Origin: Octopus sinensis
Taxonomy: Eukaryota
Direction of reading: 5' to 3'
Length of the DNA: 64,000 nucleotides
NCBI RefSeq assembly: GCF_006345805.1
Contig: NC_042998.1
Location: 61,814,001 to 61,878,000 of the forward strand
Shown: positions 10,864-59,372 of the stretch, one piece after another
Numbering within the stretch: the first letter of the stretch is position 1
Layout of the letters: every line of letters starts with the position of its first letter
Notes under the pieces: model-generated
What the model saw: only the letters and a program-made list of their open reading frames with translations
The model's database searches: none
What the model was told of the DNA's origin: nothing
Translations under genes and position numbers: made by a program

Positions 10864-12818
10864 CGATGATGATGACGATGATGATGACGATGATGATGAC
10901 GATGATGATGACGATGATGATGACGATGATGATGATGATGATGATGATGCAGTACCAGCCAGTGGCTCTCATGGATTCTGATCTTAACTGATTGGAAGTG
11001 TTATCATGTACATTGTTTTGTCTTGGCACAAAATGATGTGCTATAGCAAATATTCTGCTCAATACCACAGATTTGCTTGACAGTTTTTTTACCTTAACCA
11101 GTTGACCATGTCCCTTAGTGGCTGACGATATGTGCATCTCTGACCACGAGCAGAAGTAGTGGGTGAACATCATAGCCATGTGTTGAGAGGGATTCTTTGC
11201 GGTTTGAATAATTCACCTCTGGAAACATGATTGTTTCGTTCAACATCCTTAAACAATCCTTATTCAGAGACCTTTTGAGCGGGATGGGCTACTCGACCAG
11301 AACAAAATTCTAACTGGGCCATATATTTACATATATTTACATATATTTACAAACATCGGGAACCCTCTTAACTCAAAAAGTCTTGTCGTTTTGTTATCGA
11401 CCGGGTTGAACTCTCTCAAAAACTTAAATTATACATACATACATATACGACTTCGATTGAATCCCAGGAAGACATGCCAAATATAATGATCTGCAATCGA
11501 GAAAAGAAATTATCATTTGCCCGGCTGATGTCAACATAATGTTAAAAATTAGTGAAAAAGAGAAATCTGCCGTTTCTCCATCCAGACTGTTTTAGATTTT
11601 TACTAATAATTATTGCAGAATTTAGCAACCAGGGCTGTCGCCAAAACCCTGTAATCTGCGGTCGCAGGGTTCCTCCGCGGTTGAAGGGCCCCATGTTAAG
11701 ATCAAAGTACGTAGATGAGTCGTTTATTTATTTTGGTTAAGATGTTGAACAAGAATTAAACTATGTTAGGTGAAAATTTCAAGAAATAAAATGGTAATAC
11801 ATTGTACCTGCAAAAGGTCTTGTAGAAATATTACATTGAACTACAAATGTGTACCAGACTTTGTGGATTGTTTCTGAGATCTATTGAATACGAACTTAGC
11901 TCTCGGCTTCATTATTTTGAACTGATCGAAGATTTCGGGATGCGAAAAGTGCGCTGTGTGTTTGTCTTTGAAAGTTGCCTGGATTATAAAAGTGCTCTTT
12001 TATTCATATCTGGAAGTTTTACTTGTTGAAATTTGTAATAGACCTAAATAAATGTAACAGGTTGTACTTTTAAAGATGTTGTTTAGGATAACGTGAAATA
12101 TTGAACTTCAGATAGAATAAAGTAAAATATAGCCATGAATAAAAGGTGCGTAGATTATGAATTTTGATTGAAGGGATGAGACCTCGAAATAAAAAGATTC
12201 GAGGGGTGGGCTCTAAAAGTTACGTTTACGTAGTTCTGATCCTCTTAAGGATGGAGGGATTCGCAAAACTAGACAGAATACGCCTTGTCAACAGATTATA
12301 GCTACAAGCAATAAAAGACACTGTCAAGATATGTAAAACATTTAAGAAGTTCAGCTTGCAATAATTACCCCAAATTCGACGCTATCATGTTTGCACTTAC
12401 ACACACATGCATGTATATATATGAATATGTGTATACATGCAAACATACAATTATACATACGTATACATTCATACTTGACTACTAAATTCCAATGAAGGAA
12501 TCTTATTTCTAGAGTAGAAGATGGCTATTTCTCCATTGGTACAGCAAAAAAATCAATAAAACCAGGAAAATATACATACATACACAAATACATATATACA
12601 CATGCATACATACATAAATACATACACACATATATACATGCATACTTCGTTGCATACATGCATTTATACATACATACATACATACATACGTACATACATT
12701 CATACATACACAGATACATACATGCATTCATACACACATACGCCTACATTCATACATACATATATACATACACAGAGAGCGAGGAATAGACTTTAAAAGA
12801 ATTGATGTATATAAGAAG

Positions 12819-16679: not shown

Positions 16680-18250
16680 TATATGAAAAAACAAGTCAAG
16701 ATAGAAGAAGAAGAAGAAGAAGAAGAAGAAGAAGAAGAAGAAGAAGAAGAGAAGAAGAAGACGAAGAAGAAGAAGAAGAAGAAGAAGAAGAAGAAGAAGA
16801 AGAAGAAGAAGAAGAAGAAGAAGAAGAAGAAGAAGAAGAAGAAGAAGAAGAAGAAGAAGAAGAAGAAGAAGAATGAATGAATGAAAGTAGTGAGGTGTTA
16901 AATGACTTAAAGTTGGCACGCTGTGGACTACAGCAGTGATTGGGGCTGCTTTTTAATGAATTCTTAGGAATGTAATATTTTCGTGTGTATTTGTGCTATT
17001 CCAAGGCCGAGTAGGGTATGTCGTTTGTCGTAGAGGCGTTCAGAAGGGGCCTGTATTTTGTAATAAAGAGAGCTTACTTAACAATTCGTTGGCTCCAAGT
17101 TGCATCGTCCCTGAATTGGTAGAGGGGAAAAATCCTGAAGCTTGGAGTTTTGTCGTTGGCGCAAATGTCTATGTGTTGGCTGAATGCTATTTTTCTGTTT
17201 TGGGGAATTTTTATCTGGGATCTGTGCAGGGCCATTCTTTGACGTAGACTATTTTTTGTTTGGCCTATGTATTGCTCTTGACATCCAGAGCAGGTTAATG
17301 TGCATATCAGGTTCTCCGAAATACATGTGAAGTTGCTTTTCACTGTGAAACGTTGTCCCTGTTTGAAGAAGAACTCTGATCCCTCAATTAGAAAATCGCA
17401 TATCCCACAATTGGGTCTTCCACATATTTTTACTGTCGGCTTCTGTGTTGTTGAGCGTATTCGGGCTTTTTTTAGGAGACTTTTCATAGATTTGGGCTGT
17501 CTCTTGATTTTTATGATAGTATGTGTTTGGAGGATTAAGTTCATTCTGTGGTCCTTTTTTAGCAGGGGTATGTTTTGGAGGATGGTGTCGAAGGCTTCAT
17601 TGTTAAGAGGGTTGTGTGTGGAGATGTATGGTAAGGCTTTCGGTTGTAAATTTTTCTTTAATTTGGGATGTCTGAGTTCCTGGATATTGAGTTGAAGGGC
17701 ACGTTGAATGCATATGTCAATTAGTGAAGGTGGGTAGTTCCTGGTGATGAGTGTATCTTTTGATTCATGTAGTCGTGTGTCTCTGGCGTTTGCATTAGAA
17801 ACTATAGTACATATCCTTTTTGCTAGATTGAAGGGGATATTCATTCTGGTGTGTCTGGGGTGGCATGAATTGAATGGTAGATATTGCTTGGAATCTGTAG
17901 GCTTATAGTATATATCTGTTTCTATTACGTTATTAAATTTCTTAATGAGGATGTCGAGGAAGGGGAGTTGTTGCTGGCTATATTCCATCGTGAATTGGAT
18001 GTTTACGTCCAGTCCATTTAAAAATGCTCACCGACAAAGAATATGACTATATGACCAATTTCACAAGTAAAACCAGCCAATTCTAAGATATCCCCAAATA
18101 TTCTTTTAAAAATTTTTTTCTTTTAATTTTTCTAAATTTAACTATTTAATTGTTACAGTTGAAAAAGTCTCAATGACTGAAACCGGTACTGAAATGTTCT
18201 TTATAAAATTATTTTAGCATTTTCTATCTTGACTTGTTTTCTTCATATAT
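16680..18250 (-). mobile_element. 5'-truncated Penelope-like element (RT C-terminus + GIY-YIG endonuclease) with inverted termini
   Basis: ORF 17988-17074 contains LPFLDILI, YYKPTDSKQYL..SCHP, CxxxxCxxC and LTCSGCQEQYIGQT. The frame continues past a premature stop into ALFITKYRPLLN. TTCTATCTTGACTTGTTTT at ~18221 is inverted at ~16687-16705. Confidence 0.9.
18156..18191 (+). ncRNA. Minimal hammerhead (U3-A8 variant) in a Penelope terminal repeat
   Basis: CAG-TTGAAAA-AGTC tcaat GACT-GAAAC-CGGTA-CTG, with palindromic ACCGGT stem III. It sits directly beside a Penelope RT/GIY-YIG ORF. Confidence 0.7.
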
Positions 18251-20280: not shown

Positions 20281-22440
<2,160 letters not shown>

Positions 22441-27167: not shown

Positions 27168-27649
27168 ATGACGTCACTGTATTCCGTCGACGACAATCAC
27201 CCGTCCACGTTAATTATGTCATTATGTCAAAACAAGTCTTTACTGACGATGATGGACTACGGCGAAACGAGCAACAGCACAAACAGCAACCACAACAGCA
27301 ACAACAGCAACTGCATGAACAACAACCACACCAGCATCAACAACAGCAACAGCGACAACAACACCAGCGCTAACAGCAGCAACAACAACAACAGCAACAA
27401 CAGTAGCAACAACAGACTTGAAATGATTATTGTGCCGAGCATCTACGCCGTCGCCATTGTCGGCGGATGTATTGCTAATGGCGCTTTAATTACTCTTCTT
27501 TGTAAAAATCGCAGACAGAAATACAACAGCACAGGAATCCTGGTGCTCAATCTAGCCATTGCCGATTTGCTATTTCTTCTATTCTGGGTACCATTCCATA
27601 CGATTATCTACACTATGTCCATATGGCCGTTCGGAGATTTCATGTGCAG
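27168..27649 (+). CDS. Class A GPCR, galanin/allatostatin-A receptor-like, coding exon 1 (N-terminus, TM1, TM2, ECL1)
   Basis: Reads ...GGCIANGALITLL...NSTGILVLNLAIADLLFLLFWVPFHTIIYTMSIWPFGDFMC, with the LAxAD and WPFG-x3-C motifs. Donor AG|GTTAGT at 27649/27650, phase 2. The start ATG is uncertain because downstream in-frame ATGs exist. Confidence 0.92.
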
Positions 27650-28317
27650 GTTAGTGGCAACAGATATATTTTTGTTGTTGTTGTTCTTCTTCTTGTTATT
27701 ATTATCGTCGTCGTCATCAGCATCATCATCATTGTCATAATTACTATTGATGTTGGTAAGACGGCGAACTGGCAGAACCGTTCACATATCGGACGTAATG
27801 CTTAGCGGCATTTCGTCCGTCTTTTTGCTCTGAGTCCAAATCGCGCCGAGGTCGACTTTGCCTTTCATCATTAAAATAAGTACCAACTTCAGATAAAATA
27901 AGTACCAGCTGAACACTAGGGTCGATTTAATCGATTAGCCCCTCCCCCACAAAAAATTCAAGGCCTTGTTCCTATCGTAGAAAGGATTATTATTATTAAT
28001 ATTGAGTTAGCGAACTGGCAGACTTGTTAGAGCGTCAGACAAACTGCTTCGCGGCATTTCTTCGGACTCTACCTTCTTACATAGCTAGGTATATACCCTT
28101 CCGTCTTCTCTACCTCCCTCCCTCTCTCCCTACCTACCTACTTACCTACCGACCAGCATACTTATCTTCCTGTTCACCTATATTCCTCCCCCCTCCCTAC
28201 ATAACTACTCATCTCTACTGAGCTTCTGTCCGTCTTTGTTAAGCATGCTTCTGCATATGTATTTGCAGGTTTAAGCCAGATTTTTTCTGTAAAGACAGTC
28301 AGTTATTAAATCTCTAA

Positions 28318-31695: not shown

Positions 31696-31890
31696 ATTTA
31701 CATTATTTACATAATAATAATAATAACATCGAAAAATACCTTAGAAATGAGAATCCAGGTTCGAAATTTCCCCAAGACACCTCATGGAGGCTGGAGGGTA
31801 TATCAGCCGAAACGTTGATGAGGACAAATATCCACCAAATGTAAATAATGTAAATAATGTGCATAATTCCTATCTTTTAAATATAGAACT
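31696..31890 (+). mobile_element. Headless copy of the 33152 element tail
   Basis: Colinear with 33300-33490. It retains GGCTG/CAGCC and GAAACGTT, but the core is mutated to CTCATGG. Confidence 0.75.
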
Positions 31891-33151: not shown

Positions 33152-33266
33152 GCCATATGCCCACGGGCATATGGCGTAATGGTTAAGAGCGCGGGCTACT
33201 AACCCCAAGATTTCGAGTTCGATTCCAGGCAGTGACCTGAACAACAACAACAACAACAACAACAAC

Positions 33267-33312
<46 letters not shown>

Positions 33313-33490
33313 TCGAAAAATACCTTAGGAGTGAGAACTCAGGTTCGAAATTTCCCCAGGACACCTGATGAAAGCTAGAGGGTATATCAGCCGAAACGTG
33401 TTAACAACAAACAAGATGAGGACAAATATCCGTCGAATGTAAATAATGTAAATAATGTACATAATTCCTCATCTCTTAAATATAGAACTG
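33152..33490 (+). mobile_element. tRNA-headed SINE-like element with a hammerhead-containing tail
   Basis: A-box-like TGGCGTAATGG and B-box-like GAGTTCGATTCC, then an (AAC)n(AAT)n linker, then GACAC-CTGATGA...AGCC-GAAAC-GTGTT (33360-33402). A headless copy is at 31696-31890. Confidence 0.7.
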
Positions 33491-33881: not shown

Positions 33882-33941
33882 GGATGATGATGATGATGAT
33901 TGCTTTTCTTTCCCTCAACTTTTTTTTCTTTTAATTTCCAG

Positions 33942-34692
33942 ATTTATCCACTACATGCAGTTCTCTAGTATGTTCGCCAACGTCTTCACACTGACCGCCA
34001 TGGCAGTCAACCGTTACGTCGCCATACGTTTCCCGATTTGGACGAGGCTCCGTCGTAACCACAAAGATGTCGTCATTATCAGTCTAGTCATTTGGATTGT
34101 GGCTCTTTGCCTCGGCATTCCATCGTCCCTTATCTACACTACTGTGGAATATCAAGGAAACTTTTACTGCACAGACTCCTTTCAAGATAAACGCCATTTA
34201 AGGCCGACATTTTTCCTTCTCAATTTCTTAATCGGTTACGTAATTCCACTGAGTACTATTCTGATTCTTAGCACCCTCACTGTATGTAATATGTGGAACT
34301 CAACCAATATGGAAGGCATAAACGCTGCTGAATCTCTTCGCAACAAACGTAGAGCTACGAAAATCGTAATATCTCTGGTTTTAGTATTTGCCTGTATGTG
34401 GTTTCCTTACCATTTGTTTTGGATATGGGTGAACTATTTCCATGACAGCTTCGAATGGTCGTATGCATTCTATTACTTCCAAGTATTTGCTTATTTGTTA
34501 GCTTTTACGAATTCTGCTTTAAATCCATTGGTCTACGCGTTCTGCTCGGAAACTTTCCGAAAGAAATTGTGCATTTGGTCGAAACGCAAGCAAGATCATT
34601 CGTTCCTGTCTCATTCGAGATTAACTAATCATTCTATTCGATCAATCCCTCAAAATACTCAAGAAATTCCAATGGACAAAATATCTCTGTAA
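33942..34692 (+). CDS. Same GPCR, coding exon 2 (TM3-TM7, C-tail)
   Basis: Pyrimidine tract and TTCCAG acceptor end at 33941, and the phase matches exon 1 (MC-R-FIHYMQ). Motifs: TLTAMAVNRYVAI, TM4 W, GYVIP, CMWFPYH, NSALNPLVY. Stop TAA ends at 34692. Spliced CDS is 1233 nt (410 aa). Confidence 0.95.
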
Positions 34693-34959
34693 ACAAACAA
34701 AAACAAATAAGCATATACTTTGTCTTTTTTTTTATCACGACTGCTGAACAATAGCATCATTGGTTAAAAGTCACAACGTAACAATTACTGGTTCACTATA
34801 TTTATAACGGCGACATGCTCCATGTCTGTAACTCAGTATAGAACAAATATTGCAAAAAAGCACTGGGTTTTTTTTCTTTTTTTACGTTTTTGTCGCCTGT
34901 GTATATATATCTTTCACCCATATACATCGGCAATAATATTTAAAATTCATGTACAGTTA

Positions 34960-35351
34960 AATGAAGGAAAGAAAATGGAAAGTTGAGATAATAATAATTA
35001 TCTATTATTTAAAAAGAAAGGTAATCTCTACTTCTTGCAGCCGTTTCCATTAGTGCTCAATAAGAAAATTACAAATTTATGCTATAAATTTGCATCTATA
35101 TGTTATGAGCATAATTTCACCATAGAAAAAGAGTCTGCTTGCATGAACAGAAAGGTCAGCGTGTAATATCTAAAGTTATATCATTTTCTCTGATGAAATT
35201 GTGCTCATAACATATAAATGCAAATTTATAGCATAAATTTGTAAGCTTCTTATTGAGCACTAATGGAAACGGTTGTAAGAAGTAAAGATTACCTGTTTTT
35301 TAATGATAAAAAAAATATTATTATTTTAACTCTCCATTTTCTTTCCTTCAT
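34960..35351. repeat. Inverted repeat with ~170-bp arms
   Basis: ATGAAGGAAAGAAAATGG...TAGAAAA / TTTTCTCTG...CCATTTTCTTTCCTTCAT, with a ~50-nt spacer. Confidence 0.9.
35185..35282 (+). ncRNA. Putative type I hammerhead ribozyme with long stem II
   Basis: Stem I TTTCT(35185-89)/AGAAG(35278-82). Core CTGATGA 35190-96. Stem II ATT-GTGCTCA...TGAGCAC-T-AAT. GAAAC 35266-70, then GGTT-GTA with predicted cut after 35277. The closing pair of stem II is a non-canonical A.G. Confidence 0.68.
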
Positions 35352-35587
35352 GAATTTTATTCTAAATATATAACTATTGATTTAAAGAATTTTCATTTCC
35401 CAAATATACTAGGTATAGAACCAGTATTTCCTTGGGTGTAACCATCCCTTTATGAGGTTAACATATCCTCTAGGCAACTTTAATAATTAACATACATACA
35501 TACATACTTACATACATACATACATACATACATACAAACAAACAAACAAACAAACAAACATAAGAAAAATAAGGTAAAGCTCAAGTT

Positions 35588-35809
35588 TAGTTTATTTTAA
35601 AGTTCCTACTCGCGTTTCACCATTATGGTTGTTTGGAGCTCTGCTATGGAAGTTTCAAATGTATATAAAAGCCCAACCACGCCGAATCCAAGGGATCGTG
35701 TTTCCTGACGAGCCAGCGTGACTGAGCATCTACATACATTTGGAATTCCTAGCATAAGGCTCCAAACAGCCAAATGGTGAAACGCGCGTAGGAACTTTAA
35801 TATAAACTA
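35588..35809. repeat. Inverted repeat with ~95-bp arms
   Basis: TAAAGTTCCTACTCGCGTTTCACCATT / AATGGTGAAACGCGCGTAGGAACTTTA. Confidence 0.88.
35700..35795 (+). ncRNA. Putative type I hammerhead ribozyme with ~59-nt loop II
   Basis: Stem I GTTTC/GGAAC. Core CTGACGA 35705-11. Stem II GCCA(35712-15)/TGGT(35775-78). GAAAC 35779-83, palindromic stem III ACGCGCGT, GTA cut site after 35790. Confidence 0.72.
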
Positions 35810-35910
35810 GTGTTTATCCTTATTATCCCTACAGTTGCTATGTAGCTCATAACTGGTAATGCTATTCAGCGTAGAAGTTACTTAACAACTATACAGAAAG
35901 CAGATGGGGG

Positions 35911-36229
35911 CGGACGTCGGATTTAGGAAGCACCAACAAGTTGGAATTTCTTCGTTTTGACGGGTTTTCTCAGATTTTTTTTTTTCACAGTGCCCTTGGA
36001 AAAGCTCTAGACTATCTTTTTAGCAAAATCTCCCTTTAATCATACACCATTTCGTCTGAAAATATCTACTTTTTTTTTTTACCGAAAAAGCATATTTCGC
36101 AAATTTTTTATTATTATTATTATTATTATTATCCAGAGCATTTCCAAGGGCACCGTGAAAATAAATGAAAAATCCTCTTCAAAACGAAGAAATTCTAACT
36201 TAATGGTGCTTCCTAAGTCCAATGTCCGT
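35911..36229. repeat. MITE-like inverted repeat with ~100-bp arms
   Basis: TTAGGAAGCACCA..GAATTTCTTCGTTTTGA / TCAAAACGAAGAAATTC..TGGTGCTTCCTAA, and GTGCCCTTGGAAA/TTTCCAAGGGCAC. Confidence 0.85.
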
Positions 36230-36758
36230 CGAGACGGGATTATAATAATCTAGGTGGAGGTCTAAACATAACCGTGACAATCATACATCAACTTGTACGT
36301 TACGTACAAGGTAACAGTTGACAATGGCTCGAAGTTTCGCCATGGATCGCCTTCGTAATACTGTCTGATTCTTTAGTCCTTGATGCTATTTATATGCTTA
36401 GGTTCGGCTTATGAGCAGAGTAGAAATGAGTTGAACGTACTATAAGAATATAATAAGTATTTAAAACAAAAGAATTTTTTACCGTTTGACTAAGCCAACC
36501 ATTGGCAAAACTTCGAAGTTCCTATCAACATTTTCCTTGAAACGATAAATTTAATACCTTTCCTAAATGCATTGAATCATCTTTCTGTGAACATTTCACT
36601 GTTTTTATGTACAACTGAACATAAAAAAATCCACATTCACATATAATATATACATACATACATACATACATACATACATACATACAAACATACAATACAT
36701 ACAGATATATGTGTGTGTGTGTATATAATATAATATATATATATATATATATAATATA

Positions 36759-50099: not shown

Positions 50100-51228
50100 C
50101 ACCTTGATCACCTTGACCGACCAGTCCGTCAGGCGTCCATTTGACACCGCTGGTCACAGCACGCTGTCTACTCCTCTCTGGATCGCGCCTTTCTCATCCA
50201 CGTCATCCCAATCCAATCGTCCTCCTGAAATCGTAACTCCACCGTCGTGGAGGTCTTCCAGGTGGTCTTTTCCGCTCACGCGGGTACCACTCGACAACTG
50301 CGTGCGTCCACTGATTATCGGTGAGCCGGGCGACGTGCCCAGCCCATCTATACTAGCTGCGTGTATACTCTGCGATGACATCTCCCACGCCGGACTTCTT
50401 TCTGATAATCTTGCTACTTATGTGCTCTCTCAACGAGATACCAAGCATTGACCTTCCCATGGCTATTTGAGCCGTTACCAGTCTTTGCTCTTCTCTCTTT
50501 GTGGTAGCCCATGTTTCACTACCATACAGCACAATGGACCATATATTTACTCTAACACAACTGCTTGAGCGAAAAAATGAGTACAAGCTGCCTCTTTGTG
50601 TTGCGTTTATAGATTATGAGAAGGCCTTTGATAGCGTCGAAGGAATCGAAACGCAATATGTGCAGCTGCTCAGAGGCAAATTCCGGATGCACCACCGACA
50701 TAGCTCTACTGTCATCACCCATACGAGTGCCGGTCGAGAAGGGAGTGAAACAAGGAGATACAATCTCCCCAAAACTTTTCACTGCATGTCTCGAACAGAT
50801 CATCAGAGGCATCGACTGGCAAGGTGGTGTCAACATCAATGGCGAGCTCCTCACTCACTTCCGTTTCGCTGACGACATCGTACTCATCGCTGAAAACATG
50901 GATCAGCTTCAGACCATGCTGACGGAGCTCGACATCAAAAATTCTGCAGTAGGTCTCAAGATGAACCGCATGAAAACAAAGTTCATGCGGTCAGACAATG
51001 TACCAACAGGTCGAATGGTGATCGGCAGTGATAAAATAGAGGAGGTGAGGGAATTTGTCTACCTGGGACAGGAAGTAAATATGTGCCGGGATATCAAAAA
51101 GGAGATCTCACGGAGAGTAAGGGCCGGATGGAAGGCATTCAATAGCATAAGGGATGTGCTCAAGGGAAGGTTGGACAAGACCACCCGCGCCAACCTCATT
51201 AACAGTGCAGTTCTGCCTGCAATGTTAT
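50100..51228. mobile_element. RTE LINE fragment with 5' inversion
   Basis: The + strand carries RT (FIDYEKAFD, GVKQGD.ISP.LF, FADD) to ...PAMLY. The - strand carries the continuation YGSETW... to a (CAAGGTGAT)n tail. Confidence 0.88.
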
Positions 51229-51250
51229 ATACACATATATATATATATAT

Positions 51251-52912
51251 ATCATCATCATTTAGCATCCGCTTTCCATGCTAGCATGGGTTGGACGGGT
51301 CAACTGGGGTCTGTGAAGCTGGAAGGCTTCGTCAGGCCCAGTCAGATCTGGCAGTGTTTCTACAACTGGATGCCCTTCCTAACGCCAACCACTCTGCGAG
51401 TGTAGTGGGTGTTTTTTACGTGCCACCTGCACAGGTGCCAGACAGAGCTGGCAAACGGCCATGAACGGATGGTGCTTTTACGTGTCACCGGCACAGGGCC
51501 AGGCGATGCTGGCAACGGACACGAACGGACGGTGCTTTTACGTGTCACCGGCATGGGGGCCAGCCGAGGCTGGCAACGGACACGAACGGATGGTGCTTTT
51601 ACGTGCCACCGACACGGTTGCCAGACAGAGCTGGCACACGGCCACGAACGGACGGTGCTTTTACGTGTCACCGGCACGGGGGCCAGCCGAGGCTGGCAAC
51701 GGACACGAACAGATGGTGCTTTTACATGCCACCGACACGGGGCCAGACAGAGCTGGCAAACGGCCACGAACGGACGGTGCTTTTACGTGTCACCGGCACG
51801 GGGCCAGGCAAGGCTGGCAGCGAACACGAACGGATGGTGCTTTTACGTGCCACTGACACGGGGGCCAGACAGAGCTGGCAAACGGCCACGAGCGAATGGT
51901 GCTTTTACATATCACCGACACGGGTGCCAGACGAGGCTGACAGCGGACACGAACGGATGGGTCACTTAACCCCTTATTTCTGATATATGATTTGATTTTG
52001 ATTGTTCTCACTGGTCTTGCCGGGTCTTCTGACGCACAGCATACTTCCATAGGTCTCGGTCTCTGGTCATTTCCTTGGTGAGACGTAGAGTTCGAAGGTC
52101 GTGCTTCACCACCTCGACCCAGGTTTTCCTGGGTCTACCTCTTCCACAGGTCCCCTCAACTGCCAGGGTGTGGCACTTTTTCACACACCTATCTTCATCC
52201 ATTCTCGCCACATGACCATACCAGCGCAATCGTCTCTCTTGCACACAACATCTGATGCCTCTTAGGTCCAACTTTTCTCTCAAGGTACTTACACTCTGTC
52301 GACTATGAACACTGACATTACACATCCAACGGAGCATACTAGCTTCATTTCTCGCGAGCTTACGCATGTCCTCAGCAGTCACGGCCCATGTTTCACTGCC
52401 ATGTAGCATGGCTGTTCGTACACATGCATCATACAGTCTGCCTTTTACTCTGAGCGAGAGGCCTTTAGTCACCAACAGAGGTAAGAGCTCCCTAAACTTT
52501 GCCCAGGCTATTCTTACTCGAGCCGTTACACTTTCAGCACACCCACCCCCACTACTGACTTGGTCACCAAGATAACGGAAGCTATCAACTACTACTAGTT
52601 TTTCCCCCTGGAAAGTGACGGAAGTTGTTTTCTGCAGATTTTCAGAGGTTAATGCTCCCGAGCATCTGCCACATACAAAAACCATCTTCCTAGTTAGCCT
52701 TCCTATGACATTGCTGCACCTCTTATGTGTCTATAGCTTACACTTGGTGCATCTTATAGAGTTTCTACCTACACCTTTTCTACAGATCGAGCAGGGCCAT
52801 CTACCTGAAGGCGTTTGTGATTTGTCTACCTTCCTACTTATTACGACTTTGGTTTTAGCTAGGTTGACTCTAAGGCCCTTCGATTCTAAACCTTGCTTCC
52901 ACACCTGAAACT
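51251..52912 (-). mobile_element. RTE LINE 3' part (second family)
   Basis: FRYLG, HGSETW, RLRWYGHV and RGRPRKTW motifs. The 3' UTR holds a ~60-bp tandem array and a (TGA)n tail. Confidence 0.9.
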
Positions 52913-58139: not shown

Positions 58140-59372
58140 GATTTCAGAACAACTTCTGTCACATTCCAAGGAGAAAAACTAGAAGTAGTTGGCAGCTTCC
58201 ATTACCTAGGTGACCAAGTCAGTAGCAGGGGTGGATGCTCTGAACGAGTAGCTGCTAGAATAAGAATAGCCTGGGCAAAGTTCAGAGAGCTCCTACCCCT
58301 GCTAGTGACAAAGGGCCTCTCGCTCAGAGAAAAAAGGTAGACTGCATGACGTGTATGAACAGCCATGCTACATGGCAGTGAAGCATAGGCCATGACTGCT
58401 GAGGACATGCGTAAGCTTGTATTGAATGAAGCCAGTATGCTCCGATGGATGTGTAATGTCAGTGTGCATACACAACAGAGTGCAGGCACCTTGAGAGAAA
58501 AGTTGGACCTAAGAAGCATCAGATGTGGTGTGCAAGAGAGACAACTGTGCTGGTATGGTCAGGTGGGGCAAATGGATGAGGACAGCTGTGTGAAAAAGTG
58601 TCACACCCTAGCAGTTAAGAGAATCTGTGGAAGAGGTAGACCAAGGAAGACCTGGGATGAGGTGGTGAAGCACGGCCTTCAAACATTGGGCCTCAGCGAG
58701 GCAATGACTAGTGACCAAGAGTTTTGGAAATATGCTGTGCTTGAGAAGACCTGGCAAGCCAAGTGAGACCATAACCTGTGGCCTATGCCAGCAGTGTAAC
58801 CAGCCTACTTATGCGTACCTTTCTTTCGTTGAACACTAAACTTTGCTTGCGAAGACCTGTTAAGGCAAGTGAAATCACAATCAAAATCAAATTCGCTGAT
58901 GTGACTGAAGACAGCACTGCCTGACTGGCACCCATGCCAGGGGAACGTTAAAAGCACCATTCAAGCGCGATCGTTGCCAAGTCCACTGACTGGCTCCTGT
59001 GCCAGTGACACATAAAAGGCACCATTCGAGTGTGATCGTTACCAGCATTACCTTACTGGCACGTGAAAAACAACATTCGAGCAAGGTTGTTGCCAGTGCC
59101 ACTGGACTGGCTCCTGTACAGGTGGCACATAAAAACCACCATTTGAGCATGGCCATCGCCAGTACTGCCTGACTGGCCCTCATGCCAGTGACACATAAAA
59201 GCTCCCACTACACTCTTGGAGTGGTTGGTGTTAGGAAGGGCATCCAGCTGTAGAAACTGCCAGATCAGATTGGAGCCTGGTGCAGCCATCTGGCTCACCA
59301 GTCCTCAGTCAAACTGTCCAACCCATGCCAGCATGGAAAGCAGACATTAAATGATGATAATGATGATGATGA
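58140..59372 (+). mobile_element. RTE LINE 3' part, diverged copy
   Basis: Same ORF motifs and 3' UTR as 51251-52912, in the opposite orientation. Confidence 0.88.

Follow-up and report, generated by a model that had tools for sequence, protein, structure and literature searches.

It has been reported that truncated hammerhead ribozymes of Penelope-like elements (PLE) are widespread, occurring singly or as opposite-strand pairs 100-700 bp apart, and PMC4209133 characterizes PLE hammerheads as inactive in monomeric form, with low activity as dimers. The metazoan pseudo-LTR hammerheads treated there (min-HHR and short-helix-III variants) resemble the octopus motifs studied here: they are of type I, with a helix I of 4-5 bp, an enlarged helix II and a short palindromic helix III, and they comprise many truncated copies, opposite-strand pairs and high variability among copies. 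Insertions of endonuclease-bearing (EN+) PLEs carry an inverted 5'-truncated copy and show a bias towards microsatellites (PMC8557442, in its account of insertion structure), and PMC11167929 reports no RNA-seq ends at a PLE hammerhead site. As far as these two sources describe them, EN+ PLEs share with the octopus elements the 5' truncation, the inverted 5'-truncated copy at the 5' end, the microsatellite ends, two alternative 3' ends and, for our family A, a C-terminal GIY-YIG-like domain upstream of the hammerhead. Two further systems are relevant for a position behind a coding region. In the rodent Clec2 genes, as described in PMC6765202, a hammerhead lies on the mRNA strand between the stop codon and the poly(A) signal, a placement that may also apply here, where the first AATAAA past the stop is at 36160; however, the Clec2 ribozyme is discontinuous, with shown cleavage and lowered expression, whereas the octopus motifs are contiguous, high-copy, antisense-paired, limited to a 2-bp stem III and known from sequence and folding. 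Finally, the inverted-repeat 3' UTR hairpins edited by ADAR that are discussed in part of PMC9989829 are, like the octopus pairs, long imperfect intramolecular duplexes in transcribed sequence, although each octopus pair comes from one insertion event and its editing is hinted at by one run.

The locus lies in a window of 64,000 nucleotides of Octopus sinensis (contig NC_042998.1), whose positions are used throughout. By protein similarity, its gene is a galanin-receptor-like rhodopsin GPCR with two coding exons: exon 2 is 99% to an Octopus bimaculoides protein named galanin receptor 2b and 76% to an Argonauta galanin receptor type 3-like. The features of the gene and of its 3' side are as follows.

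27168..27649, + strand: GPCR coding exon 1, from the N-terminus to the start of TM3 (open reading frame; 7tm_1, E 4.5e-12)
33942..34692, + strand: GPCR coding exon 2, to the stop codon (7tm_1, E 1.1e-34)
34955..35135, - strand: inverted 5'-truncated arm of element A; stops at the fixed 3' end of the family, 3 of 11 core positions changed
35185..35282, + strand: sense hammerhead of element A; stem I 35185-89/35278-82, CUGAUGA 35190-96, A.G at 10.1-11.1, long helix II, GAAAC 35266-70, GUA 35275-77
35283..35480, + strand: remainder of the element A pseudo-LTR, with the longer 3' extension common to other copies
35490..35560, no strand: (ACAT)n/(AAAC)n microsatellite, at the 3' end of the element B inverted arm
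35562..35694, - strand: inverted arm of element B, 5' core broken
35700..35795, + strand: sense hammerhead of element B; stem I 35700-04/35791-95, CUGACGA 35705-11, G.U at 10.1-11.1, partly decayed helix II, GAAAC 35779-83, palindromic stem III, GUA 35788-90
35796..35904, + strand: remainder of the element B pseudo-LTR, interrupted at about 35905 by the third fold-back repeat (loose ends of other copies at 35904)
35911..36228, no strand: third fold-back repeat, arms 35911-35981/36158-36228 (77%)
36195..36638, + strand: single-copy stretch past both cut sites, probable distal 3' UTR (contigs of two spliced-RNA runs, X8 record 30 and X20 record 22)

A donor GT at 27650 directly follows exon 1, the end of which appears as a spliced loose end in runs X8 and X20, and the stop codon occupies 34690-34692. 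Neither AATAAA nor ATTAAA occurs from 34692 to 36160, so that the first AATAAA past the stop is the one at 36160, inside the third fold-back repeat. The DNA depth of 36195-36638 is 36-39, similar to that of the coding exon. Two sense-strand copies of a SINE-like repeat were also found in the GPCR intron (33170-33490 and 31728-31890, both +). Within the 3' part of this repeat lies a minimal hammerhead made up of CUGAUGA, a short helix II and GAAA. The triplet is complete in other genomic copies; the copy at 33365 is two bases short at that point, and the core of the copy at 31728 is broken. Its head is tRNA-like by eye, a stretch in which ARAGORN called nothing; the same program called no tRNA genes in the window.

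A scan of the whole window on both strands, for type I cores with a stem I of at least 4 bp, returned three candidates, namely 35185-35282 (+), 35700-35795 (+) and a weak one at 11117-11240. The first-pass annotation had described the former two as type I hammerheads about 0.5 and 1.0 kb behind the GPCR stop codon, and both the description and the distances hold: CUGANGA, GAAAC, GUA and a 5-bp stem I are all present, and the motifs start 493 and 1008 nt past the stop. Both sense arms have the core CUGANGA, GAAA and NUH with A15.1-U16.1, in a type I topology (stem I open-ended, stems II and III closed); stem II runs for 3-4 bp before its first interruption, and stem III has 2 bp. The long stem/loop II that had been attributed to both motifs is a long helix II in A; in B, stem II has only about 4 contiguous pairs and the partly decayed helix II contains mismatches and a one-base deletion at 35772 that the related organism E lacks. 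The canonical G10.1-C11.1 pair is replaced by A.G in A and by G.U in B. The proposed check against Rfam did not recover the motifs, since a hammerhead was among none of the 9 matches at E<=10 in 34900-35900, nor among the 150 listed of the 152 matches over the window; the long helix II probably defeats the Rfam hammerhead models. Tight family patterns with an intact core gave 12 (A) and 8 (B) genomic matches, equally divided between the strands (6+6 and 4+4), while the reversed controls matched nowhere (0 and 0). The existence of the two type I motifs, as described and beyond chance, is confirmed.

Each motif had also been described as one arm of a head-to-head dimer with a decayed antisense core, and this is what we observed. 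The motifs are the right arms of the inverted pairs 35012-35132/35181-35301 (90%) and 35575-35624/35773-35822 (84%), and 3 of the 11 core positions are changed in each antisense arm, those of element B adjoining the inversion junction. Three fold-back repeats lie within 1.3 kb, and the inverted arms have drifted 13-17% apart. The third repeat sits inserted in the element B extension and is high copy by read depth.

Both motifs are pieces of dispersed repeats, with nothing peculiar to the GPCR gene. The genome of the same organism holds at least 566 first-look candidates for family A and at least 226 for family B, lower bounds from which the 40 candidates most like the window were scored per family. 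In the alignments of these copies the intact core is the majority state of each family. The copies are 5'-truncated; in both families one class of arms stops at a fixed position, after which comes a microsatellite, and another class is 110-150 nt longer, and arms on two strands occur at 14/45 A loci and 16/38 B loci. Positions 10.1-11.1 are A.G in 36 of 48 A arms, and U.U (19/41) or C.U (7/41) in the B arms; since the deviation is family-wide, it may be a functional variant of active elements. In this respect the octopus families differ from the hammerheads of PMC4209133, where the G-C pair is called "highly conserved" and the authors describe one bulged base in place of the symmetric mismatch found here, and the octopus helix II, at 65-70 nt, is far longer. 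Our literature search on hammerheads in octopus or Penelope found no account of these families, while supplementary tables may list mollusc motifs. RNAalifold, applied to 12 B arms, gave no hammerhead fold; this alignment was gapped out of register and its arms had been picked for intact cores, so that it does not constitute a covariation test. Many B copies (for example L026, L027, L034 and L037) have an AATAAA about 7 nt before the core of the hammerhead; the window copy has lost it at its inversion junction.

The tie to Penelope-like elements, noted in the first-pass annotation, was borne out for family A by a collinear ORF with a GIY-YIG-like domain and is probable for family B from its architecture. 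Long A copies reach at least 3.6 kb upstream, into a decayed ORF. At five independent loci (L125, L126, L127, L128 and L046) hammerhead A is preceded, on its own strand, by PLE-type ORF fragments, and in L128, L140 and L142 such fragments have an inverted A arm directly at their 5' end. The C-terminal part of the decayed ORF matches an abundant protein family of the same genome (at least 11,806 candidates, with 150 of the 11,806 scored). One of its long members, L170, has RT-like motifs recognized by eye followed by a GIY-YIG-like C-terminus, for which the closest ESM Atlas clusters are GIY-YIG ones (0.95-0.96). Pfam and PDB searches with the long ORF of L170 gave no RT name; the homologs of its RT half are without names, many of them with PF26215. 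Pfam searches with the PLE fragment of the window and with P0001 gave nothing informative, and a search for longer homologs of P0001 found none. A hammerhead with a long helix II lies 0.5-2.2 kb downstream of the ORF in 5 of the 8 long-ORF loci. Based on the same-strand ORF fragments at five loci, the inverted arms at ORF 5' ends and the GIY-YIG-like domain, family A is the 3' end of a PLE. Compared with the EN+ PLEs of PMC8557442 and PMC11167929, where the tail measures 30-40 bp, the octopus elements have about 110-150 nt between their two 3' ends, and no ORF is left at our locus.

Both families show 5' truncation, an inverted 5'-truncated copy and microsatellite-associated ends. For family B the link to an ORF is weak: of 14 extended loci, two gave weak matches on the same strand, L214 at 1.2-1.4 kb upstream (E 4e-6) and L221 at 3.7 kb upstream. 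Earlier searches for its parent gave an unrelated inserted repeat or short matches only. With the same architecture as A, family B is probably a PLE.

Other PLE-type sequences were met along the way. Five loci (L164, L165, L168, L169 and L170) represent younger PLE-type elements with long open frames. Their hammerheads have a helix II of 65-85 nt and a G-C pair at 10.1-11.1, and four of the five also show a palindromic loop 3; for long-helix-II hammerheads, these elements are better in vitro candidates than the window copies. Within the window, 17074-17988 (-) is a 304-aa fragment of another Penelope-like ORF, with a thumb and a GIY-YIG-like part by eye and no Pfam match, flanked by an inverted terminal segment and microsatellites. 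LINE-type RT-like pieces were recognized by eye at 20748-21278 (-), 50616-51284 (+), 52008-52685 (-) and 58392-58766 (+), one of which was checked and had no Pfam match.

The annotation had taken the retention of the core on the sense strand alone, twice, as a hint that control of 3' end formation or stability had been co-opted. Both window sense arms keep the 11 core bases in full, and both antisense arms have lost 3 of the 11. Elsewhere in the genome, 30 A arms out of 50 and 10 B arms out of 41 retain the full set, after arms missing the 5' core region were dropped (10/60 A, 15/56 B); an intact core together with the triplet and a stem I of at least 4 bp is found in 23/48 A arms and 5/41 B arms, and one intact plus one broken arm in 6 of 14 A and 5 of 16 B two-strand loci. 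From these frequencies, the rough chance of both sense arms being intact is 0.06-0.15, and that of the exact pattern (sense intact and antisense broken, twice) is about 0.03, a value obtained post hoc among hundreds of genomic copies. The annotation had added that two cases could be chance; with a rough post-hoc chance of 0.03-0.15, the strand pattern gives no more than a weak hint. Divergence of the window sense arms is average, with 9.2% for A against a family median of 10.5% and 17.5% for B against 15.9%, and 21 of 50 A copies and 24 of 41 B copies are less diverged than the respective window arm. At the non-core divergence of the B arm itself, zero core changes have a probability of 0.12. 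At position 10.1 the B arm of the window has G where organism E and the majority of copies have T, a change in the direction of the canonical G10.1. Across copies the core is less diverged than its flanks (A: 4.8% against 10.8%; B: 10.7% against 16.5%), which reads as selection in active element lineages together with the effect of the 5'-core filter, the two being unseparated in these values, rather than as selection on genomic copies.

The folding of the sense RNA was predicted at equilibrium and for the RNA without proteins. The fold-back fragments reach -212 kcal/mol (A) and -130 kcal/mol (B), with z values of -23 and -14, and forcing the hammerhead within them costs 107 (A) and 77-80 (B) kcal/mol in both the local and the whole-UTR context. 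In the fold-back context the predicted probability of stems I and II is 0, and no accessible hammerhead fold is predicted in the transcript. When folding was followed along the growing RNA, the upstream arm captured the ribozyme arm from the start, holding 97 of 103 (A) and 78 of 101 (B) bases at completion. Even as isolated motifs the hammerheads are not favoured by energy alone (z -1.5 for A, +0.1 for B), and forcing them costs 5.7 and 11.5 kcal/mol. As stem III has only 2 bp, a dimer is called for; the stem III duplex energies are -1.8 kcal/mol for A:A and -13.3 for B:B, and no same-strand twin was found near either motif. A heterodimer of A with B, whose stem III duplex has only -2.3 kcal/mol, was considered as well and rejected.

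Transcription of the locus was assessed by aligning 4 of 24 listed sequencing runs. Runs X8 and X20 are spliced RNA, since their contigs begin at the splice acceptor with the exon-1 loose end, and it is on this junction that their RNA status rests. The contigs of X8 cover 33939-34882, 35709-35937, 35947-36175 and 36195-36638, the second of which bridges the cut site at 35790 and the junction with the third repeat. Those of X20, which is from organism E, cover 33939-34733, 35573-35787, 35822-35934 and 36207-36638; the contig that stops at 35787 falls 3 nt short of the B cut site, within a high-copy region in which contigs tend to break. RNA contigs thus cross the cut site at 35790 and are present beyond both sites, which places the motifs on transcribed sequence behind the GPCR; none of them spans from the stop to 36638, and they show neither strand nor expression level. 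Stretches free of RNA cover (34883-35030 in X8, 34734 to about 34900 in X20, and 35277, unbridged among the listed contigs) were counted as no evidence. The contig depth of 36207-36638 against the coding exon is 8.3 vs 9.2 in X20 and 5 vs 11 in X8, contig depth being a poor measure.

In the DNA run X18 both insertions are at the same place in organism E, a related species that is about 97% identical in the exon, so both insertions predate the split from it. In the 396 nt of the B region there are 23 substitutions, plus 4 gap positions; none of the 9 differences listed out of 27 over 35573-35968 is in the core, which at about 6% divergence is expected to be unchanged half the time. The differences listed for X8 are A>G at 22 of 36 places and T>C at 2 of 36 (binomial p 4e-5), a hint of ADAR editing of + strand RNA, whereas X20 shows no excess (A>G 16/67, T>C 15/67). 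At 36295-36300 about 19 extra bases are present in X8, X18 and X20 relative to the window and X1, and for this reason X8 is regarded as a different allele or lineage from the window, with an identical coding exon.

Taken together, the locus very probably contains ordinary PLE remnants in a long GPCR 3' UTR, in which each hammerhead is captured by its antisense arm and the transcript remains uncut. Two unrelated PLE families would each have left one short insertion in what is now a long 3' UTR, in the usual PLE form of a 5'-truncated pseudo-LTR preceded by an inverted 5'-truncated copy. The hammerheads would have arrived with the pseudo-LTR and decayed about as fast as those of other copies. 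As the sense RNA is made, its antisense arm would emerge first and would capture the ribozyme arm in a long duplex, so that the hammerhead could not fold, and the 2-bp stem III would need a same-strand partner that is absent here. We infer that one transcript crosses the region and reads through uncut in cells; if there is an effect on the mRNA, long UTR hairpins acting as ADAR substrate are a likelier cause than self-cleavage. The data accordingly do not support the idea that 3' end formation or stability is under co-opted control, as the core is inherited from the family, the arms are averagely diverged, the antisense arm is predicted to sequester the ribozyme, and contigs bridge 35790 and run past both sites. 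Such co-option would make the motifs active 3' UTR hammerheads of the Clec2 kind, cutting the GPCR mRNA and removing its poly(A) signal, perhaps switched on by a helicase, an RNA-binding protein or editing, and we consider it highly improbable. The position between the stop and the first AATAAA at 36160 would suit it, as would the precedent described in PMC6765202 and the sense-only retention of the core, but the last has a rough chance of 0.03 and the sequestration would have to be overcome at 77-107 kcal/mol, with 5.7 and 11.5 kcal/mol needed even by the isolated motifs. The 2-bp stem III, with duplexes of only -1.8 (A:A) and -2.3 kcal/mol (A:B), the missing G10.1-C11.1 pair, and the helix II mismatches and 35772 deletion of B that are not in organism E also argue against activity. 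That organism E has both insertions with no core change listed is favourable, although only 9 of the 27 differences are listed and an unchanged core is expected half the time at about 6%; similarly, the X20 contig ending at 35787 falls in a high-copy stretch prone to contig breaks, and the X8 contig bridges 35790.

An early end of the transcript is the alternative that we regard as unlikely: the main mRNA would end upstream of about 35180, the downstream RNA would be read-through or a separate transcript, and the motifs would be intergenic debris. The coding exon and the elements never share an RNA contig, and several RNA-like runs hold about the coding-exon share of words only, as this reading would predict, but there is no AATAAA or ATTAAA between 34692 and 36160, and the contig depth of 36207-36638 stays at 8.3 against 9.2 (X20) and 5 against 11 (X8). 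An early end would differ from the PLE-remnant reading in UTR length only and is compatible with a transposon origin. It is also very improbable, on present evidence, that the elements have been kept for their hairpins, as UTR duplexes edited by ADAR that tune the export, stability or translation of the receptor mRNA. Octopus is an animal with heavy RNA editing, and inverted Alu pairs in 3' UTRs form analogous ADAR-edited hairpins. The three fold-back repeats in 1.3 kb and the X8 excess of A>G over T>C (22 of 36 listed vs 2, p 4e-5) are in line with such a role, and repeat-derived dsRNA is the main metazoan ADAR target according to the part of PMC9989829 concerned with it. On the other hand, X8 has no matched DNA, its contigs include 90-95% alike ones that are maybe other copies, and 22/36 refers to the listed places only, while X20 is without an A>G excess (16 vs 15 of 67). 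The drift of the arms by 13-17% is as expected without selection on pairing, and editing itself would not demonstrate function. The least probable possibility, and a speculative one, joins the two ideas: a head-to-head PLE would silence its own hammerhead via the antisense twin and so persist in a 3' UTR, with the sense cores kept as a latent switch opened by ADAR editing or unwinding. If true, this would be a rare regulated UTR ribozyme outside mammals, a transposon-derived, editing-gated ribozyme on an octopus GPCR mRNA, with a non-canonical 10.1-11.1 and a helix II of 65-70 nt.

For the PLE-remnant reading that we favour, it is important to consider that an intact hammerhead core in a cephalopod UTR is what abundant PLE debris would be expected to leave, and it is therefore no sign of co-option. 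For the octopus PLE families, our literature search gave no earlier description of hammerheads that combine so long a helix II with a mismatch at 10.1-11.1 throughout the family. Head-to-head PLE insertions of this kind should neutralise their own ribozyme and create long UTR dsRNA, which would make them possible ADAR substrates.
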